Positions 13,223-34,116 of a stretch of 64,000 bases of DNA are shown here, in pieces. Numbering within the stretch: the first letter of the stretch is position 1; every line of letters begins with the position of its first letter. The notes below the pieces were generated by a model. The model saw only the letters and a program-made list of their open reading frames with translations, did not search any database and was not told the DNA's origin. This DNA comes from a virus. The translations under genes and the position numbers were made by a program. The DNA lies in IMG/VR virus record IMGVR_UViG_3300021962_000028, positions 64,001 to 128,000 of that record; one strand, written 5' to 3'.

Positions 13223-13243
13223 TATCTTTGTAATGTTCTTTGA
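13223..13243 (+). promoter_or_regulatory. TAnnTTTG promoter plus boxA-like GTTCTTTGA upstream of tmRNA
   Basis: tatctttg at 13223-13230 and gttctttga at 13235-13243. Confidence 0.7.
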
Positions 13244-17867: not shown

Positions 17868-17894
17868 ACTACAAAGATAATATTTTTTATTTAA

Positions 17895-20101: not shown

Positions 20102-20102
20102 A

Positions 20103-20513: not shown

Positions 20514-20559
20514 ACTATAATTTTTTTTACTAATTTTCTTCATTTGACAAATATATGGA

Positions 20560-21060: not shown

Positions 21061-21105
21061 AAGACAAAGATATGAAGAATATTTTAATTGGCAAAGAAAA
21101 ATATG

Positions 21106-21191
21106 CGGAAGATGAGGGGCTCGAACCCTCGCGACTTTAACATCCTACCTGTTTAGCAAACAGGCCCCTTCACCAACTTGGGTAATCTTCC
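21106..21191 (-). tRNA. tRNA-Ser(GCT)
   Basis: Cloverleaf, CCTGT-TT-GCT-AA-ACAGG, long variable arm. Confidence 0.92.
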
Positions 21192-21196
21192 AATAG

Positions 21197-21268
21197 TAGT
21201 CCCTGAGGGATTCGAACCCCCACTAAAACATCCGTAGTGTTTCGTGCTCTCCGTTACACCAAGAGACT
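21197..21268 (-). tRNA. tRNA-Arg(ACG)
   Basis: AAACA-CT-ACG-GA-TGTTT. Confidence 0.9.
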
Positions 21269-21274
21269 GTACAT

Positions 21275-21478
21275 CTAATTAAAGGTATATTTCATATCTT
21301 CATTAAAGATAAAAACATTACCTTCTTGAGTTATACCTAACTTACTCAAAACAATATTAAATTCTTCTTGAGTGAAAAATTTAGATTGTACCAACCTGTA
21401 ATACGAGTTTAATAAATCAACTATCTCAGGTTCTGAAATTTGATGGGTGTTTAATAATTCATTTAATTTGTCTGTCAT
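21275..21478 (-). CDS. Small hypothetical protein
   Basis: Likely start MTDKLNELL; the upstream extension in the ORF track overlaps structured RNA. Confidence 0.5.
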   Translation of the reverse strand: MTDKLNELLNTHQISEPEIVDLLNSYYRLVQSKFFTQEEFNIVLSKLGITQEGNVFIFNEDMKYTFN

Positions 21479-21504
21479 ATATTTTAGGATTTTAAGTGTC
21501 AGAA

Positions 21505-21915
21505 TAAAAAGGTCCTGAATCATCCCTCCGCCTTCTGAGGAGAACCTTTTAGTTTTTAGTATAGTTTGGCGTTCATAGTATCCCACACCGATATGACTAA
21601 GATTCGTTAGCCCATAGTAACCATCCACGGTGGGTCTGTACTCTCACCCATATTTCAGGGTTACCCTCAGAACATCTTCACCCTACCCCCAAAGTTACGT
21701 GGCGAGTCTCACTCGGAAGACAGAGTGTGTATTGTAAGATTGTTCAGTGTTCTTACAACTTGTGGATTGTATTACGACTAATTAAAGCCCCTCACCCCCT
21801 TAATCCATAATGGGGAATCCTTGTTTGTTTGTGTAGCCTCCCCCATAGCCTTGAAGCCTTCAAGTCAGGTTCACACTCCATAACGGTAGGATATTTCCGT
21901 TAATCGTGGGGTCTT
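21505..21915 (-). ncRNA. Candidate structured non-coding RNA(s), about 410 nt
   Basis: GC-enriched spacer in the tRNA operon with hairpins such as TAACGG/CCGTTA, TTGTAAGA/TCTTACAA and AAAGGT/ACCTTT. Confidence 0.45.
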
Positions 21916-21918
21916 TTG

Positions 21919-22003
21919 CGGAGGAAGTAGGATTCGAACCTACGGTACCTTGCGGTACGCTAGTTTTCAAGACTAGTGCAATCGACCACTCTGCCATTCC
22001 TCC
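21919..22003 (-). tRNA. tRNA-Ser(TGA)
   Basis: CTAGT-CT-TGA-AA-ACTAG, long variable arm. Confidence 0.93.
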
Positions 22004-22102
22004 AATTTAGGTCGTCACGAACCCATCTGTGACTTATTACTAGATACTTGTAGTTTACTTACTATAGTTTAATCCGTTACTACAAGGGAACCCAACCTAT
22101 CG

Positions 22103-22176
22103 GGTGACTAACGGGAATCGAACCCGTGACAACTTGAACCACAATCAAGTGCTCTGCCTACTGAGCTATAGCCACC
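22103..22176 (-). tRNA. tRNA-His(GTG)
   Basis: CTTGA-TT-GTG-GT-TCAAG; encoded G-1 and C73. Confidence 0.92.
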
Positions 22177-22390
22177 ATATTAATCGTTCAATCATTTTTG
22201 ACTGTCCCCAATACCGAATTTCAGCGGCAACTCACTTTTGTGAGGGGTTAGAACTTGTGTGTTAACTTACTCCTGTTACTGGTACACTAACCAACCGACT
22301 TAGACTCAAGTAATCGGCTCAGGTCCCTATGGTTGTAACACCACTTCTCATCATTCGGGAGCAAACTAGTCGTGTACTACTCGACTCGTG

Positions 22391-22492
22391 TAGTCAGGAC
22401 AGGATTCGAACCTATTCCGTCTTTGCCATAAAGAGTCATCCGTACTGTTACTCAACCTTGGGGAGGTGACACCAACCAATGGTCTCCTGACT
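22391..22492 (-). ncRNA. tRNA-like RNA with non-canonical anticodon/variable region (102 nt)
   Basis: AGTCAGG/CCTGACT acceptor stem and GGTTCGAATCC T-arm, but no standard anticodon arm. Confidence 0.65.
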
Positions 22493-22497
22493 ATTTG

Positions 22498-22631
22498 TAA
22501 TCAAGGTCGGACTCGAACCGAATACCGTTCAAGACGGATTAGACAACCTTACGACTCCATAGACCCCACAAGTGTCTGGGACTATTGGTCTTGGGGACTC
22601 GGGCACCGTCCCTCATTACGCCCACTTGATT
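22498..22631 (-). ncRNA. tRNA-like RNA with enlarged body (134 nt)
   Basis: AATCAAG/CTTGATT acceptor, GGGC/GCCC D-like stem, TCGG-TTCGAGT-CCGA T-arm. Confidence 0.65.
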
Positions 22632-22706
22632 ATTTACCCCACTTCACCAGGTTAACGGACTGGCTGCCATATGGGAGTGGGGGTTTCCCGTTAATTCGGG
22701 ACTCCG

Positions 22707-22779
22707 TGGAACGGGGCGGAATCGAACCGCCGACACCTTGCTCTTCAGGCAAGTGCTCTACCAACTGAGCTACCGTTCC
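22707..22779 (-). tRNA. tRNA-Phe(GAA)
   Basis: CTTGC-CT-GAA-GA-GCAAG (G37). Confidence 0.92.
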
Positions 22780-22784
22780 AAGTA

Positions 22785-22921
22785 TGATAATGATGGAGTA
22801 CCCGTCTCGCTCCAATCTTAACTGCTTTCCTGAGTTTTAGGAGGCCTCGGCAGAAAGGGTGATGAACTATTTTTCCATTCGGAATTGTCGACATTCCATT
22901 GAATGGTAAGAACCATTATCA
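22785..22921 (-). ncRNA. Candidate multi-stem ncRNA, about 137 nt
   Basis: Closing stem TGATAATG/CATTATCA enclosing three hairpins. Confidence 0.55.
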
Positions 22922-22932
22922 ATATTTTAAAA

Positions 22933-23159
22933 ATTGGTGAGACCTTAAGATTTACTCATTCGTGGGTCACCCCATCCGTTCTACCTAGACCTCGCCTTTA
23001 ACATCCGTTCTACCCAAACCATCGTTTTTACCTGTTAACCTTTCGGAAAACTTTGAGTACCTCCTCAATGAGTTAATCTGATAGGGGCTCCATCTTGCTC
23101 GTCATTTCTGACTCCCTATGGGGTTCTGCTGATATAGGTCTATCTGCTATCTTACCAAT
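22933..23159 (-). ncRNA. Candidate structured ncRNA, about 227 nt, with a duplicated 13-mer
   Basis: Closing stem ATTGGTAAGA/TCTCACCAAT, inner stem AGATTAACTCATT/AATGAGTAAATCT, GGTAGAACGGATG twice. Confidence 0.55.
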
Positions 23160-23167
23160 CTAATTAT

Positions 23168-23245
23168 TCAAAGAACTCTTTTGACAGGGGAGTAGGTCAC
23201 CAACTTACCAACTACCTACCCCCCTTCAACCACATTACAAATGTA
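23168..23245 (-). promoter_or_regulatory. Internal TAnnTTTG promoter, leader hairpin and boxA-like element
   Basis: tacatttg (23238-23245), a GC-rich hairpin at 23187-23224, gttctttga (23168-23176). Confidence 0.6.
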
Positions 23246-23278
23246 CGGCAAATTATTTAATTCTCCAAACATTTTTTG

Positions 23279-23350
23279 TAGTTCCTGTAGGATTCGAACC
23301 TACGACAACTTGTATGTAAAACAAGGGCTCTTCCACTGAGCTAAGGAACT
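23279..23350 (-). tRNA. tRNA-Val(TAC)
   Basis: CTTGT-TT-TAC-AT-ACAAG. Confidence 0.92.
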
Positions 23351-23356
23351 GTTAAG

Positions 23357-23428
23357 TACCGATGGGAAGAATTGAACTTCCGACACCTTCCGTATGAAAG
23401 AAGTGCTCTACCACTGAGCTACATCGGT
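23357..23428 (-). tRNA. tRNA-Met(CAT), elongator type
   Basis: Paired 1-72; TT-CAT-AC loop as in bacterial elongator Met tRNAs. Confidence 0.8.
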
Positions 23429-23482
23429 ATTTTGGTGGACGTAGACTCATCACCTACTCTTGGGTTTCCACCGAACCCCTTG

Positions 23483-23553
23483 TTGTCCCTGAAGGATTCG
23501 AACCTCCACCGCGTGGACCAAAACCACGTGTCCTGCCATTAGACCAAAGGACA
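23483..23553 (-). tRNA. tRNA-Gln(TTG)
   Basis: CGTGG-TT-TTG-GT-CCACG; U1-A72. Confidence 0.92.
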
Positions 23554-23609
23554 GTTTGACTGTTTTTCCGATATTTATAGACTGGCATAAACCTTTAATC
23601 AAATTTATA

Positions 23610-23774
23610 ATGACTAAAGAACAAATCCAAGGTATCGTTAGACACGCACTTACTTTTGTGGGTGGTATCCTGATTATGAAAGGTCTTGCAACTGATTCAA
23701 CAGTTCAAGAACTTATCGGAGCTGCAGTTACATTAGTTGGTGGTGTATGGTCAATTATTGCTAAACAGAAATAA
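23610..23774 (+). CDS. Small two-TM holin-like protein
   Basis: MTKEQIQGIVRHALTFVGG...VGGVWS; TATTTATA upstream and a terminator downstream. Confidence 0.65.
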   Translation: MTKEQIQGIVRHALTFVGGILIMKGLATDSTVQELIGAAVTLVGGVWSIIAKQK

Positions 23775-23792
23775 TTGATAACGACCTAATCG

Positions 23793-23826
23793 AAAAAGAG
23801 GGGATTTATATCCCCTTTTTTATTTT
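23793..23826. terminator. Bidirectional intrinsic terminator
   Basis: aaaaagaggggat-ttat-atccccttttt. Confidence 0.7.
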
Positions 23827-23827
23827 G

Positions 23828-23908
23828 TGGGAGTGGAGGGATTCGAACCCCCAATGTCGTAAGACCACTGATTTACAGTCAGCTAAGCAACCGTTGCTCA
23901 ACACTCCC
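23828..23908 (-). tRNA. tRNA-Tyr(GTA)
   Basis: GCTGA-CT-GTA-AA-TCAGT, long variable arm. Confidence 0.9.
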
Positions 23909-23911
23909 AAT

Positions 23912-24048
23912 TTAGGAAAACAGAAGATGGTTCAGTGGACATCTGTTTTTACGATTAGCGTTACTCGGGTGAATACCTGCAAACTCCGATTATATTAGTC
24001 AGTATTCACTCTCGAACTATCAATACAATCATTCCCTAATCAACCTAA
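23912..24048 (-). ncRNA. Candidate structured ncRNA, about 137 nt
   Basis: TTAGG/CCTAA closing stem plus GATTAG/CTAATC, GTGAATAC/GTATTCAC and AAAACAGA/TCTGTTTT stems. Confidence 0.5.
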
Positions 24049-24056
24049 TTTTTTTG

Positions 24057-24128
24057 CGGCCAGGGAGAATTACGATATCTCGACCTATCGCTTAACAGGC
24101 GATTGCTCTTCCTCTGAGCTACCTGGCC
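24057..24128 (-). tRNA. tRNA-Asn(GTT)
   Basis: ATCGC-CT-GTT-AA-GCGAT; atypical T-loop ATCGTAA. Confidence 0.88.
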
Positions 24129-24133
24129 ATTTG

Positions 24134-24206
24134 CACGCCTACCAAGATTCGAACTTGGAACAACAGTTTTGGAGACTGTGATGATAAACCGTTTCACCAT
24201 AGACGT
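24134..24206 (-). tRNA. tRNA-Trp(CCA)
   Basis: ACAGT-CT-CCA-AA-ACTGT. Confidence 0.92.
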
Positions 24207-24211
24207 ATTTG

Positions 24212-24283
24212 AGGTCGGTACAGGAATCGAACCTGTGTAGATAGTTTTGCAGACTATCGCCTAAACCACTCGGCCAACCGACC
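24212..24283 (-). tRNA. tRNA-Cys(GCA)
   Basis: ATAGT-CT-GCA-AA-ACTAT; U73. Confidence 0.93.
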
Positions 24284-24289
24284 CTATTG

Positions 24290-24364
24290 TGTCCCCGACA
24301 GGACTCGAACCTGTGACTCCCTCATTAAAAGTGAGGTGCTCTAAACCAACTGAGCTACGAAGAC
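24290..24364 (-). tRNA. tRNA-Lys(TTT)
   Basis: CCTCA-CT-TTT-AA-TGAGG. Confidence 0.93.
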
Positions 24365-24370
24365 ATTAAG

Positions 24371-24444
24371 TTGTCACAGATGGGCTCGAACCATCGACCT
24401 TTCGCGTATCAGGCGAACGCTCTAACCAACTGAGCTATGTGACA
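24371..24444 (-). tRNA. tRNA-Ile(GAT)
   Basis: TTCGC-CT-GAT-AC-GCGAA. Confidence 0.92.
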
Positions 24445-24450
24445 ATGTTG

Positions 24451-24522
24451 TCGGGGTGGCGGGAGTCGAACCCGCCGCCTCGTGTTCCCAAAACACGCGT
24501 CTCTCCTCGAGACTACACCCCG
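24451..24522 (-). tRNA. tRNA-Pro(TGG)
   Basis: CGTGT-TT-TGG-GA-ACACG; C1-G72. Confidence 0.92.
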
Positions 24523-24543
24523 TTTACTTTTCTTACCAATATG

Positions 24544-24552
24544 TCAAAGAAC
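24544..24552 (-). promoter_or_regulatory. boxA-like element (GTTCTTTGA)
   Basis: Lies between attenuator terminator 1 and the first tRNA. Confidence 0.65.
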
Positions 24553-24562
24553 ACTTTATTAC

Positions 24563-24594
24563 AAAAAAAAATCCTGAACTTTTTGAGTTCAGGA
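24563..24594 (-). terminator. Attenuator terminator 1
   Basis: UCCUGAACU-caaaa-AGUUCAGGA followed by a U-tract. Confidence 0.8.
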
Positions 24595-24631
24595 CTTTGA
24601 TATATTTGTTGTATGTTTTTCTAAAATTACA

Positions 24632-24742
24632 TTACACTAAATCATCATTAACTGAACTTGTATGCGAAATACGCGGATACGAACAATTACTAAATTGTTG
24701 TTTCCAAATCACGACGTTCATATGTTTATTAGTGTTTTTCAT
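24632..24742 (-). CDS. Leader peptide 1 (36 aa) MKNTNKHMNVVIWKQQFSNCSYPRISHTSSVNDDLV
   Basis: Not in the ORF track. A-rich start context, TAnnTTTG promoter at 24788-24795, anti-terminator AGUUCAG (24652-24658); codons match the downstream tRNAs. Confidence 0.8.
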   Translation of the reverse strand: MKNTNKHMNVVIWKQQFSNCSYPRISHTSSVNDDLV

Positions 24743-24829
24743 TTTTTCTATTTGTTGTGGTATCTCTACCTGTTTCTATAATTACTACAAAGTTACGAAA
24801 AATTACGTAATTGTCAAATATTTTTTATT

Positions 24830-25414
24830 TTATTTTAAAAAAGATAATACTTTTTCTTTAATACCAGATTGTTTTAACCCTTCATTACCTCTTGGAGTCA
24901 ATACAAAATTTTCTAAACCCCAATCGTGAACCCATTTAATCGAATACGACATCCCTTCTTTACCCATATCAAGGTCGTCGATAGCTACCCACTCAGTAAC
25001 CTCAGGATGATTCTTTAAGTATTGGTTGATTTCCAATGTACGAGTCTGTTCTAAATCCCAATCTCTATTCCAAGGGAACGAACCATCGTAGTTATTACAT
25101 TCACTTAAGTTAGGTGTAAAGGCGATTGGTTTTTTATTAATTCCTTGGGACTCGTAATACTCTCCCATTTCCTCAACGGTACACCATCTTTTCCAATCTG
25201 ATGATACCACAATTTCCGCACCAGTTTTTTCCAAGATTTCGTTAAGAACTTTAATAGCTTTCTTATTGAAATTATCAAAACGGTATTCTAATGGCATTTC
25301 CTTTGGGGTCATTGATAACTTTTGACCGTCCCATTTATTTCGTTTCTTATAACGACCACCCCACTCTGTGGATAAACAGATTACTCCGTCGTGGTCTAAA
25401 AATATAACTTTCAT
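24830..25414 (-). CDS. HAD-family phosphatase (RNA-repair-associated HAD type)
   Basis: FLDHDGV, SSDWK and AIDD motifs; start reassigned to MKVIFLD. Confidence 0.8.
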   Translation of the reverse strand: MKVIFLDHDGVICLSTEWGGRYKKRNKWDGQKLSMTPKEMPLEYRFDNFNKKAIKVLNEILEKTGAEIVVSSDWKRWCTVEEMGEYYESQGINKKPIAFTPNLSECNNYDGSFPWNRDWDLEQTRTLEINQYLKNHPEVTEWVAIDDLDMGKEGMSYSIKWVHDWGLENFVLTPRGNEGLKQSGIKEKVLSFLK

Positions 25415-25686
25415 TTTTTTTCTATTTTTTTTAAAACCATAGACGACCATTTTTGTCTTGGCCCGTTTTTCATTAACACCTCGTTGATAAAAGTCTCAGC
25501 ATCAGGAAGATTGTTGAATTTTAGAACGGTGTTGTAAGACCCACTCTCATAACATTCTTTATACTTTACGTACGACCACCATTTAAACCATAAAAATTTT
25601 TTAGATTCTTTTATACAGAAATGAACTTGGTTACTAATACCATTCTCATTAAAATAATCTTCTCTAATAATCAGGTAACTTTTCAT
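25411..25686 (-). CDS. Hypothetical protein
   Basis: 91-aa ORF after a TAnnTTTG motif. Confidence 0.5.
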   Translation of the reverse strand: MKSYLIIREDYFNENGISNQVHFCIKESKKFLWFKWWSYVKYKECYESGSYNTVLKFNNLPDAETFINEVLMKNGPRQKWSSMVLKKIEKK

Positions 25687-25701
25687 AGTACAAATATACG
25701 A

Positions 25702-25869
25702 CTATTTTTTAATAATATAACCATATTGGTTTAAAATTAGAATAATCCCTAAAATGGATAAACCAAGACAAATTATTTTAACAATAACGTCAATGAATGT
25801 TTTCTTACTCCATATAACCCCAAAGATTAGGAATATAATTGTCGCAATAATATTGAATATAAGTTGCAT
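25702..25869 (-). CDS. Small two-TM membrane protein
   Basis: Likely start MQLIFN; the longer track ORF overlaps a tRNA. Confidence 0.5.
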   Translation of the reverse strand: MQLIFNIIATIIFLIFGVIWSKKTFIDVIVKIICLGLSILGIILILNQYGYIIKK

Positions 25870-25890
25870 ATTTGTTTTTTTAGATATTTG

Positions 25891-25964
25891 TGGTCCATAC
25901 AGGACTTGAACCTGTGACCTTCTCATTATGAGTGAGCTGCTCTAACCAACTGAGCTAAAGGACC
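25891..25964 (-). tRNA. tRNA-Ile2(CAT), probably lysidine-modified and reading AUA
   Basis: GGTCCTTTAGCTCAGTTGGTTAGAGCAG...CT-CAT-AA body resembles bacterial Ile2 tRNAs. Confidence 0.75.
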
Positions 25965-25970
25965 TATTTG

Positions 25971-26043
25971 AGCCTCCTGTAGGATTCGAACCTACGACCC
26001 CTTCATTACAAGTGAAGTGCTCTACCAGCTGAGCTAAGGAGGC
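25971..26043 (-). tRNA. tRNA-Thr(TGT)
   Basis: CTTCA-CT-TGT-AA-TGAAG. Confidence 0.93.
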
Positions 26044-26328
26044 CTATTTAATTTTCTTATATACGTAAGTTATTGTGTCCCCTATTTTGTAGATATCGTC
26101 CCTATCTGTTGAGAATGCTTGTCCGCACTCTGTTTTGTAGTAATATTTTGGAGTTAATTCATTAATTGCCACAGGTTGTTTAACCCAAGAACTATCTATA
26201 ACGCATTTAACAACTTTGTCCCCTGGTTCAATTTTATTTCTATTTTCACACCCTGTTAATACAAAGGCAATAATACCAATTAATAAAAACCAAATAATGG
26301 CAAATACGTACGGTGCGAACTTTTTCAT
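26044..26328 (-). CDS. Putative lipoprotein
   Basis: Hydrophobic signal ending in LTGC. Confidence 0.55.
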   Translation of the reverse strand: MKKFAPYVFAIIWFLLIGIIAFVLTGCENRNKIEPGDKVVKCVIDSSWVKQPVAINELTPKYYYKTECGQAFSTDRDDIYKIGDTITYVYKKIK

Positions 26329-26347
26329 ATATTATTTTTTTTGTAAT

Positions 26348-26602
26348 TTAAACAACCAAATACTTTATAGAATTTTTTTTAATCCATTCTGAATCATATT
26401 TAAACTCCTTCCAATTGTCGAAGTCCTTAAGTTCTTCTAATACCTCATTAGGTACTAATGTAAACCCTTCAGGTGCAATACCATCAAATTTATGATATGC
26501 AGAATGTTCTATTTTTTCTTTCATCATTTGACAGAATAACTCACTTTTGATAAACTCATTATGTTCTTCTTCAAATACAATATCTTGATTAATATCAACC
26601 AT
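26348..26602 (-). CDS. Hypothetical protein
   Basis: 84-aa ORF. Confidence 0.5.
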   Translation of the reverse strand: MVDINQDIVFEEEHNEFIKSELFCQMMKEKIEHSAYHKFDGIAPEGFTLVPNEVLEELKDFDNWKEFKYDSEWIKKNSIKYLVV

Positions 26603-26617
26603 AATTTCTTAATTTAG

Positions 26618-26689
26618 TAGCCCCACCAAGAATCGAACTTGGAACTAATCTTTAGAAGAGATTCGTTATATCCATTTAACTATGGAGCC
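26618..26689 (-). tRNA. tRNA-Arg(TCT)
   Basis: AATCT-CT-TCT-AA-AGATT. Confidence 0.92.
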
Positions 26690-26694
26690 ATTTG

Positions 26695-26871
26695 TTAGAC
26701 TTTTTTAACTAAGTAAACGTGACCTGAGTCTGAGTTTTTAGAAAAAATATCTCTCATTTTAATTGCTTCTTCCTCGGTTTCAAATTCCCATATTTCAGAG
26801 TGACCATCTAATATGATAACAGGAACTTTAACTCCGTTAAGACTTTCCATTAATTTTACAATTACCCACAT
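26695..26871 (-). CDS. Small hypothetical protein (58 aa)
   Basis: Manual translation MWVIVKLMESLNGVKVPVIILDGHSEIWEFETEEEA...; promoter motif at 26890-26897. Confidence 0.55.
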   Translation of the reverse strand: MWVIVKLMESLNGVKVPVIILDGHSEIWEFETEEEAIKMRDIFSKNSDSGHVYLVKKV

Positions 26872-27106
26872 AATATTTTATTTACACTACAAATTTAGTA
26901 AAAATTATCCGAATTTACAAATTAAAACAACTTTTAAGTGAAAATAATATAAAAAAAATTATTACTAACAGAATTGAGTAACCGAAAACTTTATTATTTC
27001 TTTCAACCTTTTCTTTTGAACGACCTTGCCATTCATCAGAATCCCATACTTCAGAATCCCATTCTTCATTTTCCATACTTAATAAGTATTACTAAATTTA
27101 TTTGTG

Positions 27107-27178
27107 CGGTCTATGAGGGAATCGAACCCTCCTCACTACCGTGACAGGGTAGCATCCTAGCCGATGAACGAATAGACC
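27107..27178 (-). tRNA. tRNA-Asp(GTC)
   Basis: CTACC-CT-GTC-AC-GGTAG; G73. Confidence 0.92.
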
Positions 27179-27186
27179 AATTTTTG

Positions 27187-27259
27187 CGGTCCCGACGGGA
27201 TTCGAACCCGTACCTCGCACCGTGACAGGGTGGAATTGTAACCATTCAACCACGGGACC
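27187..27259 (-). tRNA. tRNA-Asp(GTC), second divergent copy
   Basis: CCACC-CT-GTC-AC-GGTGC; G73. Confidence 0.9.
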
Positions 27260-27265
27260 TTTTTG

Positions 27266-27338
27266 AGCGGAAGACGGGACTCGAACCCGCAACCCCCGAC
27301 TTGGAAGGACGGTGCTCTACCAATTGAGCTACTTCCGC
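27266..27338 (-). tRNA. tRNA-Gly(TCC)
   Basis: CCGTC-CT-TCC-AA-GTCGG; U73. Confidence 0.92.
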
Positions 27339-27418
27339 ATTTTTGGGTAGAATCAGACGCGTTCTGTCTACCGAGACCTCGTCGTTAACTTTCGTCAGAG
27401 CGGACCGAGACACTTTTG

Positions 27419-27492
27419 TTGCGGGTGAGGGACTCGAACCCCCGTCTTTGGCTTATGAGACCAAGCTGGAACCACCTCCAGTCTAACCCACG
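27419..27492 (-). tRNA. Initiator-like tRNA-Met(CAT)
   Basis: C1.A72 mismatch; TTGGT-CT-CAT-AA-GCCAA. Confidence 0.8.
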
Positions 27493-27503
27493 ATATATTA
27501 TTT

Positions 27504-27593
27504 GTTATCACTTCAGCCACATCGTGAAAGCCGCCCCTCACGCGTTGTTTAAAGGAATCCGATTGCGGCCTCATCCTACTGAGTTATGATAAC
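27504..27593 (-). ncRNA. Candidate small structured RNA (90 nt)
   Basis: GTTATCA/TGATAAC closing stem and GCCGCA-ATCG/CGA-TGTGGC inner stem. Confidence 0.45.
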
Positions 27594-27597
27594 TTTG

Positions 27598-27669
27598 TTG
27601 CGGGAGGAGGATTCGAACCTCCGACCTCAAGGTTATGAGCCTTGCGAGCTACCACTGCTCTATCCCGCG
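27598..27669 (-). tRNA. Initiator tRNA-fMet(CAT)
   Basis: CGCGGGATAGAGCAG start, C1.A72 mismatch, CAAGG-CT-CAT-AA-CCTTG. Confidence 0.88.
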
Positions 27670-27675
27670 ATGTTG

Positions 27676-27749
27676 TGGAGATGGTGAGAATCGAACTCAC
27701 CCCAGATTGATTGCAAATCATTCTCGTCGGCCTTGAGACATACACCCCC
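27676..27749 (-). tRNA. tRNA-Ala(TGC)
   Basis: G3.U70 identity pair, TT-TGC-AA loop, atypical D and anticodon stems. Confidence 0.82.
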
Positions 27750-27756
27750 ATTTTTA

Positions 27757-28020
27757 TTATGAATACTTTTTAGCGATATTCATAATAGTATCTTCATCTT
27801 CTTTACTCATTCTATGATAAGAATTTGCTAAAACATCACAATAATCCCTATGAGTTTCCTCAATTAGTGTATATTGATTTGGTTTACCAGGACCCTTACT
27901 ATTTTTAGTTAAGTGACCTCTTTCGATTAATTCATCAATTAATTCATTAATTTCACTTTTAGAGCATTCATCAATAAATTCATAAACCTCTAAATCAATG
28001 TAAGTGCTAAATTCAGGCAT
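27757..28020 (-). CDS. Hypothetical protein
   Basis: 87-aa ORF within the tRNA operon. Confidence 0.55.
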   Translation of the reverse strand: MPEFSTYIDLEVYEFIDECSKSEINELIDELIERGHLTKNSKGPGKPNQYTLIEETHRDYCDVLANSYHRMSKEDEDTIMNIAKKYS

Positions 28021-28040
28021 AATAGTTATTTTTAAGTTTG

Positions 28041-28112
28041 TAGTCCCTACGGGAATCGAACCCGTCTTTTATCCGTGAAAGGGATATGTCCTAACCGATA
28101 GACGAAGGGACC
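28041..28112 (-). tRNA. tRNA-Glu(TTC)
   Basis: TATCC-CT-TTC-AC-GGATA. Confidence 0.93.
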
Positions 28113-28147
28113 ATTTTTAAATCTTTTACAAAGATACAACCAATATT

Positions 28148-28156
28148 TCAAAGAAC
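28148..28156 (-). promoter_or_regulatory. boxA-like element (GTTCTTTGA)
   Basis: Just downstream of attenuator terminator 2. Confidence 0.65.
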
Positions 28157-28170
28157 AAAATTTTACAAAT

Positions 28171-28200
28171 AAAAAAACCCATCTCTTTTGGAGATGGGTT
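28171..28200 (-). terminator. Attenuator terminator 2
   Basis: AACCCAUCUC-caaaa-GAGAUGGGUU followed by a U-tract. Confidence 0.82.
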
Positions 28201-28224
28201 CAGTGAATTCATAGTATAGGAATA

Positions 28225-28299
28225 TCACACCATCTCCATTGGAGTAGTCGCTTCAGTTCTATCTGTCCCGCCTATTAGTATGATATGTATTGTTTTCAT
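28225..28299 (-). CDS. Leader peptide 2 (24 aa) MKTIHIILIGGTDRTEATTPMEMV
   Basis: Not in the ORF track. Anti-terminator UGGAGAUGG (28230-28238) is complementary to the terminator 5' arm; codons match the downstream tRNAs. Confidence 0.8.
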   Translation of the reverse strand: MKTIHIILIGGTDRTEATTPMEMV

Positions 28300-28361
28300 T
28301 TGCAGTTTTACTTGTTTTTTATTAAATATACGTATGTAACGTAAAAAGTCAAATTTTATTT

Positions 28362-30152
28362 TTAAAAATTAAATCCTCCCCCTCTTTTTGTGTTAATTCC
28401 ACTTGTTCTACCCGTCTTTTTACCAGATGGGACGGTATATGGTATTACAACATCTCTACTATTCTGTCTTTTTTGGTCAATTAAATCCTTGTCAATTTTT
28501 TTAACAACTTTTTTATCGGACAATAATGATAAAATATTCTTACGAATATCTTCTACCGTACTATTATCTGACTTTTCAATTGATTTAGATGTAGCTTCAT
28601 TATTAGTATTGACTAACTTACTATCGGTATCTACAAACGTATTTTTAGAATAAACTTGTTTTAACGTATCAATAGTACTGTGTTGGGGGGTATCAATTAC
28701 GGGTTTAGTGGCCGTATTATAATAATAATTGATTTTACCGATGTCAGTTTTAGGGTAAATTCTAATAAAGGTAGAAGTCTTTAATTCATCTAATGGTCCA
28801 AAATTTGTTTTTGAATTTGTTAACTCAATATAATGTTTTCGTAATTTAGAACCATAGTTAGTTTCAGGATTAGTCGTTAATCCATTTTCGTGAATTCTTC
28901 GATAAAATAATGTTTCCTCAATTCGTTTAAAGGTCACACCATTTTTTTGGGTTCTAACCATAAAATCCGAATCTGCCGCACATCTCCAACCCTCAAAACC
29001 ATTAAAATGGTGAAAAATATGTTTTCTAATTCCAAAAACCCCTTCACCAAATAAATTAGAATATGTTTTATATTTTGGGTCATCGTAATTAATTTCTTCT
29101 TTAAAGTCGTGATACATAGGTTTAACACATTCATAATCAGTAAGGGTATTAATTATCTTGAAAACCATATCATCCGACATAACATCGTCAGAATCAAAAA
29201 ATATTAAATTTTCTGTTTTAGAAATTTTTGACAATGTATTCTTAATAACATAAGGACCAACATTTTCTTCAAAGTAAAATAACTTAATTCTAAAATCGAA
29301 TATGTTTTCTCGCACAAACTTTAAAGTTTTTTCACATTTATCAATTCCAACTAAGATTTCAAAGTTTTGTAATTGATTACAAGAATTAACTACAGAATCT
29401 AAACATTCTTTTAAAAAGTCCACATTATTAAATGTTGGTATAATAACCGAAACTTCTTTATCCAAATAGGATTCGTTAGTAAGGGTTGTTTGAATAAAAT
29501 CGGAACGTAAATCTTTTTCATAGATAGACCCTTCAAAATTTTGTTGGGTAACGTATCCGCTATTATGTTTTGCACATATAATATCAATGTTATTTTCTTT
29601 AGCATATTTACCAATCCATACATCCGCCATATTTGGTCTATCAAAATATTCTATTGGAACTTTAAATAAATCAGTATGGAAACACATAACACCTGTCCCA
29701 CCAAATTGAACTTTAGTATCTTGAGATAAAAGTTGTTTAAAGTGGTATACTGAAGTATTACGTCCATAAAAACTATTAATAGGAAATGAGTTAAATGTTC
29801 GAGCGTGTAAAGTAATAATCGACTTCCTTTTATATTGATTAACCTTATCAATCATATATTCAGTGTAGTTTTCAGGGTAAATTAAGTCGTCATCTATGGT
29901 GAAAAAATACCCGTCGGAATTCATTAAATTATAAAATTTATAAGCATCCCCTCTATCATTATCCGAAATAAATAAATTTATTTTTTTATCATACAGTTCA
30001 GGTGGAATCTCGGTATAATCATTTAATGCTACATTTATAATGTCAGATTGATTATAAATCGATTCAATAGTTTTAATCAGAGTATCCCCTCTTTTATAAC
30101 TGGCGACATTATATATTACTTTATCCATACTTTTTTTAAAATTATATTGCAA
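28362..30152 (-). CDS. Two-domain GT-A glycosyltransferase (GT2-like)
   Basis: FTIDDDLIYP in domain 1; VSVIIPTFN...FFDSDD...ADSDF in domain 2. Confidence 0.85.
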   Translation of the reverse strand: MQYNFKKSMDKVIYNVASYKRGDTLIKTIESIYNQSDIINVALNDYTEIPPELYDKKINLFISDNDRGDAYKFYNLMNSDGYFFTIDDDLIYPENYTEYMIDKVNQYKRKSIITLHARTFNSFPINSFYGRNTSVYHFKQLLSQDTKVQFGGTGVMCFHTDLFKVPIEYFDRPNMADVWIGKYAKENNIDIICAKHNSGYVTQQNFEGSIYEKDLRSDFIQTTLTNESYLDKEVSVIIPTFNNVDFLKECLDSVVNSCNQLQNFEILVGIDKCEKTLKFVRENIFDFRIKLFYFEENVGPYVIKNTLSKISKTENLIFFDSDDVMSDDMVFKIINTLTDYECVKPMYHDFKEEINYDDPKYKTYSNLFGEGVFGIRKHIFHHFNGFEGWRCAADSDFMVRTQKNGVTFKRIEETLFYRRIHENGLTTNPETNYGSKLRKHYIELTNSKTNFGPLDELKTSTFIRIYPKTDIGKINYYYNTATKPVIDTPQHSTIDTLKQVYSKNTFVDTDSKLVNTNNEATSKSIEKSDNSTVEDIRKNILSLLSDKKVVKKIDKDLIDQKRQNSRDVVIPYTVPSGKKTGRTSGINTKRGGGFNF

Positions 30153-30846
30153 TTAGTTTTTCTTGTTTTCTTAATTCAGGTAAAAACATTGATTCGTGGT
30201 CTCCGTGAGTTGTTAATGAATCAATTACGTGATACATATTCAAACCTTTGGAGAATAGTCTATTACTTATTTGGTCCCCAACTCCGCAACTAAGATTTGG
30301 GTTATTATCCCACCTATTTGGACTTATTGGATTTATATTAAAATCTAATGATTCAAAAAAGTTATACTTACATATGAATACTAATTCACACCACTGAGTT
30401 TTATAATATTCGTTATATTCTATCGGTAAAACTCCCGTCCATTTTGGTTGATTTCTTTGTGATTCTATCATAAGAGTACCCAAAGTCATTTTATTATCAT
30501 CAGGAATACTTTCAAAAATCCTAACACTTTCTTCAAAGAAATTATCTTTTAACCTTAAATCATCTTGTAAATAAACAAAATAATCTGAATTAATATTTTT
30601 ACAATATTTGAATGTGTCAGTAATGACTTTCCAAACATTTTTTAACCCATTATTTTTAATATACTTAATATATTTAACATCATAATCCTCAAGATTATAA
30701 GGTTCTTTACTTCCATCATCAAATACGGTCACCAATATATTATATTGGGTATTTTTGAATATATCATCTAAAAGATTTTTTAACATCTCCTCCCGATTAT
30801 AAGTTGTAATAATCACACAAAAATCGTATTTCTCTTTATCTTTCAT
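30142..30846 (-). CDS. GT2-family glycosyltransferase
   Basis: VIITTYNR, FDDGS, YLQDD. Confidence 0.85.
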   Translation of the reverse strand: MKDKEKYDFCVIITTYNREEMLKNLLDDIFKNTQYNILVTVFDDGSKEPYNLEDYDVKYIKYIKNNGLKNVWKVITDTFKYCKNINSDYFVYLQDDLRLKDNFFEESVRIFESIPDDNKMTLGTLMIESQRNQPKWTGVLPIEYNEYYKTQWCELVFICKYNFFESLDFNINPISPNRWDNNPNLSCGVGDQISNRLFSKGLNMYHVIDSLTTHGDHESMFLPELRKQEKLIAI

Positions 30847-31394
30847 TAATGTAATATTGTAAATGTTTTTTTATCTTCACAAATTATAGATGAAGTTATG
30901 TTTTTATTTAGTTTTTCTGATAAAAATATAGACATATTCTTATCATTTTCTCTATTAGTATCATCAATAATTATTGGTATGTCTGTTTTAAACATTTCAT
31001 AATTATTAATAATATTAACTCTGTTTTCCCCTATTGGACCGTCAATAAGTAATAAATTGTAATTGGTGGGTAATTCAGTTTTTAAAATTTCAACGTCGTA
31101 CCATCCATCTACTAAAGGTGCGTAGATATATTTTGAATCAGGTACTAAATCAACCCATTCAATATCGTGTTCAACACTATAAACATTATAAAATTTAACT
31201 AATTCTTTGGTACCATTACCACTACCTAATTCAAGAATAGTACTTCCTTTGGGTATGTTTTTAAAAATCCAATCAAACAGTTCTTTTGATATTGCCCAAC
31301 CGCCAAATGAATCATAATTAACCTCACGTTTTAAGTCAGTGTTAGTAACTACTCTTTTTGTACCTACAACTCTTTTGTTGTTTATTCTATTCAT
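30846..31394 (-). CDS. Class I SAM-dependent methyltransferase
   Basis: ILELGSG.GT, SVEHD..W, LLIDGP, IIDDT.R. Confidence 0.8.
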   Translation of the reverse strand: MNRINNKRVVGTKRVVTNTDLKREVNYDSFGGWAISKELFDWIFKNIPKGSTILELGSGNGTKELVKFYNVYSVEHDIEWVDLVPDSKYIYAPLVDGWYDVEILKTELPTNYNLLLIDGPIGENRVNIINNYEMFKTDIPIIIDDTNRENDKNMSIFLSEKLNKNITSSIICEDKKTFTILH

Positions 31395-31447
31395 TTAATA
31401 ACATTTCTATTTATAATTATAAGTATAATTATTTTTAAATCTATAAT

Positions 31448-32272
31448 ATGGTAAAAACAGTAGGAGTAGTTGGTAATGGTTTTGTTGGGGAAACTATTGC
31501 GTTTGCATTTAGCCCAACATCTAACGTAAAAATCTATGACGTTAACCCATTGAAAACAACCCATACATTAGAAGAGGTTATGGGACAAGAATTTATTTTT
31601 GTATGTCTACCAACCCCAATGTTAAGTGATGGGTCTCAAGACATTTCATTTATTGAAGACTTCTTCGGTAGTGTAATTTATAATGAAAATACTGTTTTTA
31701 TTATAAAATCAACTATACTACCAGGCACTACGGAGTCTTTAATTAAGAAGTACGGTCATAATATTGTTTTTTCACCTGAGTTTTTAACCGAGAGAACTGC
31801 TAAGTTAGATATGTTAACACAATCAAGAATTATTTTAGGAGGTGAACCATCTTTAACTAAACGAGTTGAAGAATTATTCAATGACCGATTTATGAATAGA
31901 CACATTATTCATACCGATTCTAAAACTGCTGAGTTTGTGAAATATATGAACAACACATTCTTTGCGGCAAAAGTTAGTTTGATGAACGAATATTATCGAC
32001 TAAGTCAATTAATTGGTGTTAATTGGGACGACGCACTTTATGGGTTCGCGTCCGATGGTAGAATTGGAGATTCCCACTTACACGTACCAGGTCCTGATGG
32101 TAAATTAGGGTTTGGAGGAACTTGTTTTCCAAAAGACATAAACGCACTTATCACAATGGCAAAAGAAGTGGGTTGTAATATGAATGTATTAGAGTCCGCG
32201 TGGAAAACTAATTTGGAAGTCAGACCTGAACAAGATTGGAAATCTTTAAAGGGTAGGGCGGTTTCAGAATAA
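31448..32272 (+). CDS. UDP-glucose/GDP-mannose dehydrogenase family protein (short form)
   Basis: GNGFVG, CLPTP, IKST, SPEFL, AE..KY..N.F, GFGGTCFPKD. Confidence 0.88.
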   Translation: MVKTVGVVGNGFVGETIAFAFSPTSNVKIYDVNPLKTTHTLEEVMGQEFIFVCLPTPMLSDGSQDISFIEDFFGSVIYNENTVFIIKSTILPGTTESLIKKYGHNIVFSPEFLTERTAKLDMLTQSRIILGGEPSLTKRVEELFNDRFMNRHIIHTDSKTAEFVKYMNNTFFAAKVSLMNEYYRLSQLIGVNWDDALYGFASDGRIGDSHLHVPGPDGKLGFGGTCFPKDINALITMAKEVGCNMNVLESAWKTNLEVRPEQDWKSLKGRAVSE

Positions 32273-32304
32273 GGACATATTTATAAGAAAGAAAACCGTA
32301 AATT

Positions 32305-32409
32305 ATGAAAACGTATAACAACACAGGTCTTTTGATACAGGATAACATTATCACATCGTTATGTGGCAATGGTATAGTGACCTTACGCGGTTTAGATAAA
32401 CAAAAATAA
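32305..32409 (+). CDS. Leader peptide 3 (34 aa) MKTYNNTGLLIQDNIITSLCGNGIVTLRGLDKQK
   Basis: Not in the ORF track. TATTTATA motif upstream; anti-terminator GUGACCUU (32377-32384). Confidence 0.65.
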   Translation: MKTYNNTGLLIQDNIITSLCGNGIVTLRGLDKQK

Positions 32410-32437
32410 GATTAGTTAAACTAAAAACGTATAAAAG

Positions 32438-32467
32438 AAAGGTCACAAGAAATTGTGACCTTTTTTT
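32438..32467 (+). terminator. Attenuator terminator 3
   Basis: AAAGGUCACAA-gaaa-UUGUGACCUUU followed by a U-tract. Confidence 0.8.
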
Positions 32468-32502
32468 GTTTTATTAAAAAAATGTATTAAATTTGTACAG
32501 TT

Positions 32503-33000
32503 ATGGATAGAGTATTAGTATTAAATGCGGATTACACTCCGTTAAACGTGACTTCGTCTCAAAGGGGATTCAAGTTAGTGTTTAAAGGTAAAGCGGAAGT
32601 CTTAAAGAGTTCCGATAACCCTATCTATGCAGGATATCAAAATTTTGTTCGTCCATTAATTATACGTTTATTGAAGTATGTAAAATACCGAGTTAGAAAT
32701 ATTAGGGTTAACAGAAATAGAATTTATAGACGGGATGGTGGAGAGTGTGTTTATTGTGGTTCAACAAAACAATTAACTTTGGACCACGTTATACCAAAGT
32801 CTAAAGGAGGTAAGAATACTTGGAGTAATTTGGTTACTTGTTGTCATAAGTGTAACTTATACAAAGCGGATAGAAATCCACAAGAAGCTGGTATGAATAT
32901 GAGGACAAAACCGTATGAACCAAGTCTGTTCTCAGACGTATTGAATAATTCAATTGAACGTGTGTGGATTGATTATAAAAGTTCGATGGGATTTGATTAA
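32503..33000 (+). CDS. HNH endonuclease
   Basis: VLVLNA.Y.P, RD...CVYCG, TLDHVIP.S.GG...W.NLVTCC..CN..K. Confidence 0.9.
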   Translation: MDRVLVLNADYTPLNVTSSQRGFKLVFKGKAEVLKSSDNPIYAGYQNFVRPLIIRLLKYVKYRVRNIRVNRNRIYRRDGGECVYCGSTKQLTLDHVIPKSKGGKNTWSNLVTCCHKCNLYKADRNPQEAGMNMRTKPYEPSLFSDVLNNSIERVWIDYKSSMGFD

Positions 33001-33015
33001 TCCAAATTTATTTCG

Positions 33016-33039
33016 TACATTTGTACCATAGTTCTTTGA
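33016..33039 (+). promoter_or_regulatory. TAnnTTTG promoter plus boxA-like element
   Basis: tacatttg at 33016-33023 and gttctttga at 33031-33039. Confidence 0.65.
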
Positions 33040-33042
33040 AAC

Positions 33043-33128
33043 GCTCGGGTGGTGGAATAGGTAGACACGTCAGACTTAAAATCTGATGGACCGTAAGGTC
33101 CGTGCGGGTTCGATTCCCGCCCCGAGTA
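33043..33128 (+). tRNA. tRNA-Leu(TAA)
   Basis: TCAGA-CT-TAA-AA-TCTGA, long variable arm. Confidence 0.93.
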
Positions 33129-33342
33129 CTAAGAGTAAGGGATACTCTGAAAGTTTGGTAACGTTCTTTATAAATGTTATAGTTGTCGCCTTCCACGACT
33201 TTAGAGAGGGGGTTCGTCGGATCCTGGACGTAACAAATCCACCGAGTATGTTTGACTTTTATGTGCGGGTAAGACCGTCTCGTGTTTTCAATAGGAAAAC
33301 AGAAGAAAAATCCACTCACCGTAATCTCAGGTGGGTACTCAC

Positions 33343-33422
33343 ATCAGAGTGGTGGAATTGGTAGACACGTATGCCTTAGGAGCATATGCTACGGCGTGAG
33401 GGTTCGAGTCCCTCCTCTGATA
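33343..33422 (+). tRNA. tRNA-Leu(TAG)
   Basis: TATGC-CT-TAG-GA-GCATA. Confidence 0.93.
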
Positions 33423-33441
33423 CTAAATTTAAAATTTAAAT

Positions 33442-34116
33442 ATGGATAACGCAAAAGAATTTAAATCGTACTACACGAAACACTTGTATAAACCATCAAG
33501 TCATTTGGATTACTACTCAAAACAAATTGAGAATTCTATGACTCCATACATTTTGGAAGAAAGAGAAATGAGGGCGACTCAAATCGACATCTTCTCAAGA
33601 TTAATGAGAGACCGTATCTTATGGGTCGCTGGTGAAGTTAATGATAATATGTCAACTATTGTTCAGGCTCAGTTAATGTTCTTGGATTCTGCGGACAGTA
33701 CAGACATCACAATGCACATTGATAGTCCAGGTGGGTCGGTTAAATCAGGTCTAAGTATGGTTGACGTTATGGATTACATTAAATGTGATATCCGTACAGT
33801 AAACACAGGTATGGCAGCATCAATGGGTTCAGTATTGTTAGGTGCAGGAACAAAGGGAAAACGTTCTTCATTACGTTTCTCAAGAACAATGTTACACCAA
33901 TCTTCAGGTGGGTTCCGTGGAAATATCCAAGATGCGGAAATCGATATGAAAGAATGGAAAAAAATCAACGAGACACTATTTGAATTACTTGGTAGTTACT
34001 GTGATAAAACGGCAAAACAAGTAATGAAAGATGCAAGTCGTGACTTATGGTTATCTTCACAAGAGGCACTTAATTACGGTATCATTGATGAAATCGTAAA
34101 ATCTAAGAAGGGGTAA
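33442..34116 (+). CDS. clpP: ATP-dependent Clp protease proteolytic subunit
   Basis: DIFSRL..RI, DSPGG, GMAASMGS (Ser), MLHQ (His), RD.W (Asp), YGIID. Confidence 0.95.
   Translation: MDNAKEFKSYYTKHLYKPSSHLDYYSKQIENSMTPYILEEREMRATQIDIFSRLMRDRILWVAGEVNDNMSTIVQAQLMFLDSADSTDITMHIDSPGGSVKSGLSMVDVMDYIKCDIRTVNTGMAASMGSVLLGAGTKGKRSSLRFSRTMLHQSSGGFRGNIQDAEIDMKEWKKINETLFELLGSYCDKTAKQVMKDASRDLWLSSQEALNYGIIDEIVKSKKG

Follow-up and report, generated by a model that had tools for sequence, protein, structure and literature searches.

The stretch of DNA analysed here (the window; 64,000 nucleotides) comprises bases 64001-128000 of IMGVR_UViG_3300021962_000028, a linear IMG/VR virus record of 158,622 bp. 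The record is 53% complete by CheckV and thus a fragment of a ~300 kb phage (GC ~32%); its source is an uncultured jumbo phage of that size. Within positions 21105-33423 ARAGORN found 27 transfer RNA (tRNA) genes, 25 on the minus strand and two, both for Leu, on the plus strand (Table 1). The Rfam tRNA family (RF00005) was matched above the gathering score by 26 of the 27. The remaining gene, tRNA-Ala(TGC), escapes RF00005 even at E≤1; its D arm is unusual, G3:U70 is retained and relatives show compensatory changes in the anticodon stem, and on these features we accept it as a tRNA. With 27 genes over 12.3 kb (2.2 per kb), the array qualifies as a viral tRNA gene cluster as defined by Morgado and Vicente 2019, i.e. 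at least 15 tRNA genes and at least 2 per kb. The genes lie in three blocks. Within block 1, a terminator, a mini-gene on the plus strand and long conserved spacers mark further divisions, and five genes (Ile, Lys, Cys, Trp and Asn, 24056-24444) are tightly packed with spacers of 4-5 nt; block 2 is separated from it by an RNA-repair phosphatase-family gene, and block 3 (33043-33423, plus strand) is found between an HNH gene and clpP.

Table 1. tRNA genes, leader and signal elements, and neighbouring genes of the array (positions in the window)
Feature	Coordinates	Strand	Support
tRNA-Pro(TGG), first of block 1	24450-24522	-	ARAGORN; Rfam 53.7 bits
tRNA-Ile(GAT)	24370-24444	-	ARAGORN, Rfam
tRNA-Lys(TTT)	24289-24364	-	ARAGORN, Rfam
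tRNA-Cys(GCA)	24211-24283	-	ARAGORN, Rfam
tRNA-Trp(CCA)	24133-24206	-	ARAGORN, Rfam
tRNA-Asn(GTT)	24056-24128	-	ARAGORN, Rfam
tRNA-Tyr(GTA), then terminator-like hairpin 23816-23799	23827-23908	-	ARAGORN
tRNA-Gln(TTG)	23482-23553	-	ARAGORN
Elongator tRNA-Met(CAT)	23356-23428	-	ARAGORN; reference match
tRNA-Val(TAC)	23278-23350	-	ARAGORN
tRNA-Phe(GAA), G37 in anticodon loop	22706-22779	-	ARAGORN
tRNA-His(GTG), encoded G-1 opposite C73	22102-22175	-	ARAGORN
tRNA-Ser(TGA)	21918-22003	-	ARAGORN, Rfam
tRNA-Arg(ACG)	21196-21268	-	ARAGORN, Rfam
tRNA-Ser(GCT), end of block 1	21105-21191	-	ARAGORN, Rfam
tRNA-Glu(TTC), first of block 2	28040-28112	-	ARAGORN, Rfam
tRNA-Ala(TGC), divergent D arm	27675-27749	-	ARAGORN; not Rfam
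Initiator tRNA-fMet(CAT), C1xA72	27597-27669	-	ARAGORN
Second initiator-like CAU tRNA	27418-27492	-	Rfam 38 bits
tRNA-Gly(TCC)	27265-27338	-	ARAGORN, Rfam
Two divergent tRNA-Asp(GTC) genes	27186-27259 and 27106-27178	-	ARAGORN, Rfam
tRNA-Arg(TCT)	26617-26689	-	ARAGORN, Rfam
tRNA-Thr(TGT)	25970-26043	-	ARAGORN
tRNA-Ile2(CAT), lysidine type, AUA reader, end of block 2	25890-25964	-	ARAGORN; reference match
tRNA-Leu(TAA), block 3	33043-33129	+	ARAGORN, Rfam
tRNA-Leu(TAG), block 3	33343-33423	+	ARAGORN, Rfam
Leader ORF 1, 36 codons, before block 1	24632-24742	-	Codon match
Terminator-like hairpin between leader 1 and tRNA-Pro	24568-24598	-	
Leader ORF 2, 24 codons, before block 2	28225-28299	-	Codon match
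Terminator-like hairpin after leader 2	28175-28201	-	
Bacteroidota-type promoter motif TTG-N19-TAnnTTTG, ahead of leader 1	24788-24817	-	
Similar promoter motif	28129-28158	-	
Similar promoter motif	32466-32495	+	
Similar promoter motif	17872-17901	-	
9-mer GTTCTTTGA, just upstream of the first tRNA (Pro)	24544-24552	-	
Further GTTCTTTGA copy	28148-28156	-	
Further GTTCTTTGA copy	33031-33039	+	
Further GTTCTTTGA copy	23168-23176	-	
Further GTTCTTTGA copy	13235-13243	+	
tmRNA with encoded CCA	13250-13635	+	Rfam 101.8 bits; missed by ARAGORN
Rnl1-type RNA ligase	16788-17867	-	RNA_lig_T4_1 68.7 bits
Metallophosphoesterase	18264-18920	-	Metallophos 31.7 bits
cREC_REC	20106-20570	-	78.2 bits
HAD_SAK_2 RNA-repair phosphatase-family gene, between blocks 1 and 2	24833-25450	-	77.6 bits
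ClpP, directly after the Leu tRNAs	33442-34113	+	
AAA_33 kinase	58239-58547		35.2 bits

The four genes with a CAT anticodon were assigned from their acceptor features and from which of the three CAT tRNAs in a Flavobacteriaceae genome they matched best. The gene at 23356 is the elongator Met (73% identity to the reference), that at 25890 a lysidine-type Ile2 (84% identity; C4-G69 and C5-G68) and that at 27597 the initiator (80% identity; C1xA72); the gene at 27418 is a second initiator-like one, with a D stem of 5 bp and a D loop of 6 nt. Together with 22 non-CAT anticodons this amounts to 25 types in 27 genes, covering all 20 amino acids. Asp and the initiator are each present in two copies, besides a second Phe-GAA elsewhere in the window (see below). 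All seven four-codon boxes that are read in this way (Val, Pro, Thr, Ala, Gly, Ser-UCN and Leu-CUN) have a tRNA with U at anticodon position 34 (U34) alone, with no G34 or C34 isoacceptor, and the CGN box has only Arg-ACG. The NNY pairs are served by G34 tRNAs; Leu-UUR, Gln, Lys, Glu and Arg-AGR have U34 tRNAs, and Trp-CCA completes the set. The initial annotation had listed 27 tRNAs of 25 types for all 20 amino acids, with a single U34 tRNA or Arg-ACG per four-codon box and no type common to two blocks; the ARAGORN and Rfam counts and the anticodon table bear this out, the absence of shared types holding for all three blocks given the CAT assignments.

When 27 tRNAs were drawn at random from the 31 types of the Flavobacteriaceae reference, all 20 amino acids were covered with P = 4.5e-5, and the draws that did so always included a G34 or C34 isoacceptor. 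Because random draws so rarely reach 20 amino acids, the tRNA set is no chance collection. The reference, Psychroflexus, is the nearest bacterial relative by ClpP (49% identity) and not a proven host. For Ala, Gly, Leu-CUN, Pro and Thr it encodes a G34 tRNA alongside a U34 one (its Ala-TGC gene, absent from the genes read, is presumed), and of each pair the phage retains the U34 member alone. An alternative genetic code or suppressor tRNAs were considered and rejected: the stop codons are TAA (175), TGA (14) and TAG (12), and no suppressor anticodon is present.

With the HAD_SAK protein from between the two large blocks as query, 205 related IMG/VR loci were recovered. One of them, L001, is collinear with the window at ~87% nucleotide identity and carries the same 27 tRNAs plus Gly-GCC. 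Two relatives that are close to complete (324 kb, 97%; 288 kb, 92%) have 26 and 24 Rfam tRNA matches, respectively, each in one cluster. Among GenBank phages, megablast with positions 20000-34000 matched single tRNAs and revealed no close cultured phage, and the best tblastn matches of the RNA ligase, in Streptomyces phages, did not exceed 37% identity. A PHROGs search with ten neighbouring proteins returned families of unknown function only.

Anticodon lists were compared for the 15 loci or records with at least 22 tRNAs. The list hardly varies, with Ile-TAT (11 of 15), Gly-GCC (7 of 15), and Gly-ACC and Pro-CGG (one each) as the only extras, and is kept despite a thoroughly shuffled gene order. 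The bacterial identity elements are intact (Ala G3:U70, His G-1:C73, Cys and Gly U73, Trp G73, Pro C1-G72, Gln U1-A72), and long variable arms are present in the Ser, Leu and Tyr tRNAs. For 24 anticodon types in 11 non-duplicate clade members, standard pairs account for 98.7% of the acceptor, anticodon-stem and T-stem cells, a value somewhat inflated by the preference of ARAGORN for good stems, and compensatory double changes, which this preference does not explain, occur at 303 of 408 stem positions, the tRNAs being grouped by type so that strict orthology is not assured. The anticodon list kept under shuffled order, the standard stem pairs and the compensatory changes argue that the tRNA genes are functional and selected as a set. 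In principle, the array could consist of decaying or hitch-hiking copies without a role in translation, e.g. relics of captured host tRNA clusters or of integration sites, as the aberrant members would suggest (Ala-TGC, which Rfam misses; the second initiator with 38 bits; the distant Phe-GAA with C37). The stem statistics, the identity elements and the fixed anticodon list speak against this, and the aberrant Ala and initiator-like genes are themselves conserved with compensatory changes; decay is thus highly improbable. Selection keeps the repertoire at the minimum that decoding requires but leaves the order of the genes free to vary, which argues for spare translation capacity and not for codon tuning.

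Three tRNAs deserve separate mention. The second CAU tRNA is kept in L001, L003/L004 and L052/L053/L055, and its anticodon stem shows a compensatory change; position 1:72, CxA in the window, is U-A in L052/L053/L055, and no ordinary elongator Met was found nearby in the latter three loci. This tRNA may act in elongation or play two roles. The 28th tRNA of the window is the lone second Phe-GAA (62692-62766, minus strand), 29 kb off the array, which has C37, an acceptor-stem mismatch and an Rfam score of 41.8 bits. Most relatives (L004, L043, L055, L057, L072, L082, L084) have an Ile-UAU tRNA for AUA that is closest to their own Ile-GAU (up to 79% identity) and probably arose through a G34-to-U change; AUA is read in the window by the TilS-dependent Ile2 only.

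Both large blocks are preceded by a short open reading frame (ORF) and a terminator-like hairpin. The 35 sense codons that follow the start of leader 1 include codons for all 15 tRNA species of block 1 (P = 2e-4), and 30 of the 35 belong to species of that block (P = 2.7e-4). The 3' arm of the first terminator, AGTTCAG, recurs in codons 28-31 of the leader. Leader 2 has codons for all 7 non-initiator species of block 2, with ATA three times (joint P = 7e-4). A short ORF rich in the regulated codons, combined with a predicted intrinsic terminator upstream of the genes, is the arrangement of a leader attenuator, and it would fit a shortage-sensing switch. The match between each leader and its own block gives meaning to the non-overlapping partition of the tRNAs. 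We know of no published demand-sensing attenuator over tRNA genes themselves. The promoter pattern TTG-N19-TAnnTTTG has 9 matches against 2.3 expected, and it precedes both large blocks, the HNH-Leu unit and the RNA ligase gene. The 9-mer GTTCTTTGA occurs 5 times in the window (0.93 expected; a count of 5 was reached in 0 of 100 shuffles). All five copies are in the sense orientation and just upstream of a stable-RNA unit, namely the transfer-messenger RNA (tmRNA), Pro, Glu, Leu-TAA and the module before Phe; the 9-mer may act in antitermination, like boxA, or as a signal for processing.

The array is part of an island of stable-RNA and RNA-repair genes, which flank or interrupt it. The components of a T4-type heal-and-seal system, i.e. 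an Rnl1 ligase, a 3'-phosphoesterase and a 5'-kinase, are all predicted in the window, each through domain matches only. The tmRNA has G3:U70; its tag, read by eye from the Rfam alignment, starts from a GGC resume codon, has about 22 residues and ends in ...SVA and not in ...LAA.

CCA is encoded in none of the 28 tRNA genes of the window. All end in N73-C74 followed by a non-C, so that C75 and A76 are absent, and the tmRNA ends in CCACCA. The initial annotation had noted that the tRNA genes generally lack CCA and that the tmRNA has it. The same N73-C74 plus non-C ending was found in 31 of the 31 tRNA genes read from Psychroflexus planctonicus (L104-L133). The missing CCA is therefore a lineage habit and not a phage device, and its interpretation as a peculiarity of the phage was rejected; a minority of the tRNA genes in relatives encode the full CCA. 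Since CCA is not encoded, finishing by the CCA-adding enzyme of the host is implied. The closest bacterial relatives of the phage ClpP are from Flavobacteriaceae (Psychroflexus, 47-49%), and matches of 73-76% lie on contigs of ~250 kb that were binned into Flavobacteriaceae or Bacteroidetes metagenome-assembled genomes and probably are related phages. The host probably belongs to the Bacteroidota and possibly to the Flavobacteriaceae. The fixed anticodon list and the common 3' design (C74 without CCA) could aid host assignment and annotation.

A self-sufficient set might also free the phage from the tRNA repertoire or the modification enzymes of any one host and so insure a wide host range across Bacteroidota. 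Many relatives, found in different metagenomes, keep the repertoire; in relatives an Ile-UAU tRNA, for which lysidine is not required, takes the place of the TilS-dependent Ile2 or is added to it; and the 56 tRNAs of phage XacN1 have been tied to a wide host range (PMC5852040). However, the synthetases, CCA addition and modification of the host would still be required, and the repair genes and the gating by leaders are left unexplained. We consider this role improbable.

Codon usage was determined from ORFs of at least 100 codons among the 201 phage ORFs called in the record, and was compared with a sample of 15.7 thousand codons of Psychroflexus (again, not a proven host). How many of the phage's own codons the set could read depends on U34. 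Restricted to A and G, U34 would give a coverage of 82.2%; reading of U as well would raise this to 97.4%, and reading of all four bases (superwobble) to 99.96%, in which case CGG alone, 1.3% of the Arg codons, would be unread. Relative synonymous codon usage of phage and reference sample is similar (r = 0.85). In 5 of the 7 U34-only boxes the favourite phage codon is NNU and not NNA, the direct cognate of the tRNA, so that simple matching of codon bias accounts for little. C-ending codons make up 7.8% of the U34-only boxes in the phage versus 12.6% in the reference, and 31.9% versus 29.3% of the two-codon boxes read by G34, which is weak evidence for co-adaptation to the phage's own set.

The main competing explanation is a plain boost of supply, or codon supplementation, for AT-rich, highly expressed late genes, in which the host tRNAs remain and neither defence nor depletion plays a part; completeness would then reflect the large protein demand of a 300-kb phage. 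U34 and NNR readers suit A-ending codons, which are frequent at 32% GC, AGA, TCA, ATA and GCG are commoner in the phage than in the reference sample, the anticodon loops resemble those of the host lineage, and large phages generally hold more tRNAs (PMC6409571). Against this stand the codon usage close to the Flavobacteriaceae reference and the preference for NNU. Moreover, the set includes tRNAs for single-codon or rare amino acids (Trp, Cys, Met), for which no bias can be tuned, and the gating by leader and terminator and the adjoining RNA-repair genes indicate a response to shortage. Supply alone is in our view a rather unlikely explanation.

As a check for nuclease escape, proposed in the initial annotation, the anticodon loops were compared with those of Psychroflexus, bearing in mind that this reference is not a proven host. 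Six types differ (Arg-ACG, Phe with G37, Val, elongator Met, Thr and Glu). Most are identical, Lys-UUU included, and the loops are also conserved within the clade, so that some differences but no general sign of escape emerged. Lys-UUU is the classic target of PrrC. The G37 of the block-1 tRNA-Phe, in place of the usual A37, is common to 4 of 12 Phe genes of the clade.

Several of these observations count against a self-sufficient spare set, along with the detection bias, the grouping by type and the choice of reference mentioned above. As most loops equal those of the reference, Lys-UUU among them, the phage tRNAs may be as cleavable as the host ones. If host enzymes restrict U34 to A and G, host tRNAs would be needed for 17.8% of the phage codons. 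Five clade records, including those 97% and 92% complete, yielded no CCA-adding enzyme (PF01743) and no TilS (PF01171); the tRNAs would thus depend on maturation by the host, and autonomy is partial. Finally, the repair genes could equally serve host tRNAs.

The initial annotation had taken the array for a wholesale replacement of the host tRNA pool rather than codon-bias supplementation. Completeness, near non-redundancy, clade-wide retention, the reference-like codon usage, the NNU preference, the flanking repair genes and tmRNA, and the codon-listing leaders favour that view over supplementation, whereas the reference-like loops, the missing maturation enzymes and the gating do not agree with a wholesale replacement. 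Because the large blocks appear to be gated by a codon-matched leader and terminator, a conditional spare set is favoured, and the gating points away from a constitutive replacement. A role of the tRNA set as a spare pool or in the response to depletion is, with moderate confidence, the explanation that we prefer. Bacteroidota-type promoters would drive polycistronic tRNA units, from which host RNase P and 3' nucleases would excise the tRNAs; their 3' ends would be completed, starting at the encoded C74, by the CCA-adding enzyme of the host, Ile2 would be modified by its TilS and Arg-ACG by its TadA, and its synthetases would charge the tRNAs. Each large block would be switched up when ribosomes stall for lack of the tRNAs of that block. 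The pool could then sustain phage translation when host tRNAs are depleted, by tRNA-cutting defences or shut-off, or are outrun by late demand, and with broad U34 wobble it would read 97.4-99.96% of the phage codons without host tRNA. A more far-reaching and tentative possibility, which we hold with less confidence, is that each block is a separate regulon whose own leader senses shortage of its own tRNAs, and that the blocks form, together with the heal-and-seal enzymes, tmRNA, ClpP and anticodon-less Leu-tRNA-shaped RNAs (see below), an integrated island of Bacteroidota jumbo phages that detects and repairs attack on the tRNA pool.

That phage tRNAs counteract tRNA depletion has been proposed before (PMC10264068, PMC11555353), and phage tRNAs rescue infection from tRNA cleavage by PARIS and retrons (PMC11464382, PMC11555353). 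One case is T5, with 23 tRNAs (PMC11464382), of which Lys and Tyr make infection possible again where the tRNAs of the host are cut by PARIS or retron effectors (PMC11464382, PMC11555353). T5 and other Demerecviridae resemble the present phage in being virulent with a large array for most or all amino acids. They differ in host phylum and phage lineage (the nearest cultured relative of the RNA ligase is below 37% identity), and the array of the window is organized in units, two of them with codon-matched leaders, among RNA-repair genes; furthermore, the anticodon stem-loop of T5 tRNA-Lys differs from that of its host (PMC11464382), whereas the loops of the window are mostly reference-like. Mycobacteriophages of cluster C1 (~33 tRNAs; PMC10264068) likewise have a near-complete set, codon usage as in the host and a proposed anti-tRNase role, but their tRNAs carry loop changes at known VapC sites and avoid targeted anticodons, a pattern not seen in the window relative to Psychroflexus.

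Complete phage tRNA sets are already known. The Xanthomonas jumbo phage XacN1 has 56 tRNA genes for all 20 amino acids (PMC5852040), and all 20 isotypes were present in 8 of 228 surveyed viral tRNA clusters (PMC6409571). XacN1 and these eight clusters share with the present array a large or jumbo phage, a tRNA for each amino acid and clustering at about 2 per kb. XacN1 is highly redundant, with tRNAs in its terminal repeats, whereas the set of the window is near the theoretical minimum (25 types in 27 genes) and is an unusually tidy, clade-wide example. It resembles the minimal sets of Mollicutes and plastids (PMC4014445, PMC8877259) in that each four-codon box relies on a single U34 tRNA and CGN on Arg-ACG alone, and in that CGG is hardly used. 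Those are cellular or organelle genomes, in which unmodified U34 and four-way reading have been measured; the phage set coexists with host tRNAs in the cell. The T4 tRNA cluster, with repair of PrrC-cut tRNA-Lys by Pnk and Rnl1 (summarised in PMC10264068), is comparable in its U34-type anticodons, its Rnl1-family ligase and end-healing enzymes, and its stable RNAs of unknown role within the cluster. T4 has 8 tRNAs, an incomplete set, and the healing functions of the window are predicted on separate HAD_SAK, cREC, metallophosphoesterase and AAA_33 genes. A widespread clade of uncultured jumbo phages (more than 200 related IMG/VR loci) thus joins the few viruses with a complete tRNA complement. 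With arrays beside RNA-repair genes and behind codon-matched leaders, it would offer a clean natural test of whether phage tRNAs answer host tRNA depletion.

Block 1 also contains two tRNA-shaped RNAs, X1 (22497-22631) and X2 (22390-22492), both on the minus strand, with a standard T arm and an A73-C74 end. Their acceptor stem of 7 bp reads AAUCAAG in X1, AGUCAAG in the relatives of X1 and AGUCAGG in X2. Most members of the family have a Leu-tRNA-like D arm and none has a conserved anticodon loop; they are 79-160 nt long with unrelated middles, occur in 20 of 85 related loci in up to four copies each, and show compensatory changes in the 135-nt form. ARAGORN in relaxed modes (intron, mitochondrial, low-threshold) gave weak calls of 'Arg-CCG' (22497-22573), 'Thr-AGT' (22316-22409) and permuted tmRNAs, which were not accepted as tRNAs; the first two overlap these anticodon-less RNAs. 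Four array spacers on the minus strand (21482-21917, 22184-22389, 22780-22933 and 23909-24055; 150-430 nt) are devoid of ORFs and have a higher GC content than the sequence around them. Their identity to L001 is 93-97%, compared with 86-87% for the flanking genes, and they recur as rearranged separate modules in up to 17 related loci. These conserved spacers probably are further structured RNAs; an Rfam scan of the long spacers at E≤1 gave no credible family, and no group I intron, RNase P RNA, GOLLD, ROOL or YrlA.

A small plus-strand ORF (23556-23774), hydrophobic and membrane-protein-like as read by eye, is located between Tyr and Gln beside a two-way terminator hairpin (23794-23821) and shares 98.9% identity with its counterpart in L001. 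Ahead of the Leu tRNAs (31448-32997, plus strand), a short UDP-glucose dehydrogenase-like ORF (274 aa) without the start of the NAD-binding domain is followed by the HNH endonuclease gene, which directly precedes the tRNAs. Over the whole 158.6-kb record, short palindromes are extremely avoided: CATG occurs 0 times (380 expected), CCGG 0 (151), GATC 1 (450) and GCGC 10 (70). The GC dinucleotide is at 0.54 of expectation, and the codons TGC, GGC, AGC, CGC, CTC and CTG are nearly absent. The shortage of palindromes looks like restriction-site avoidance.

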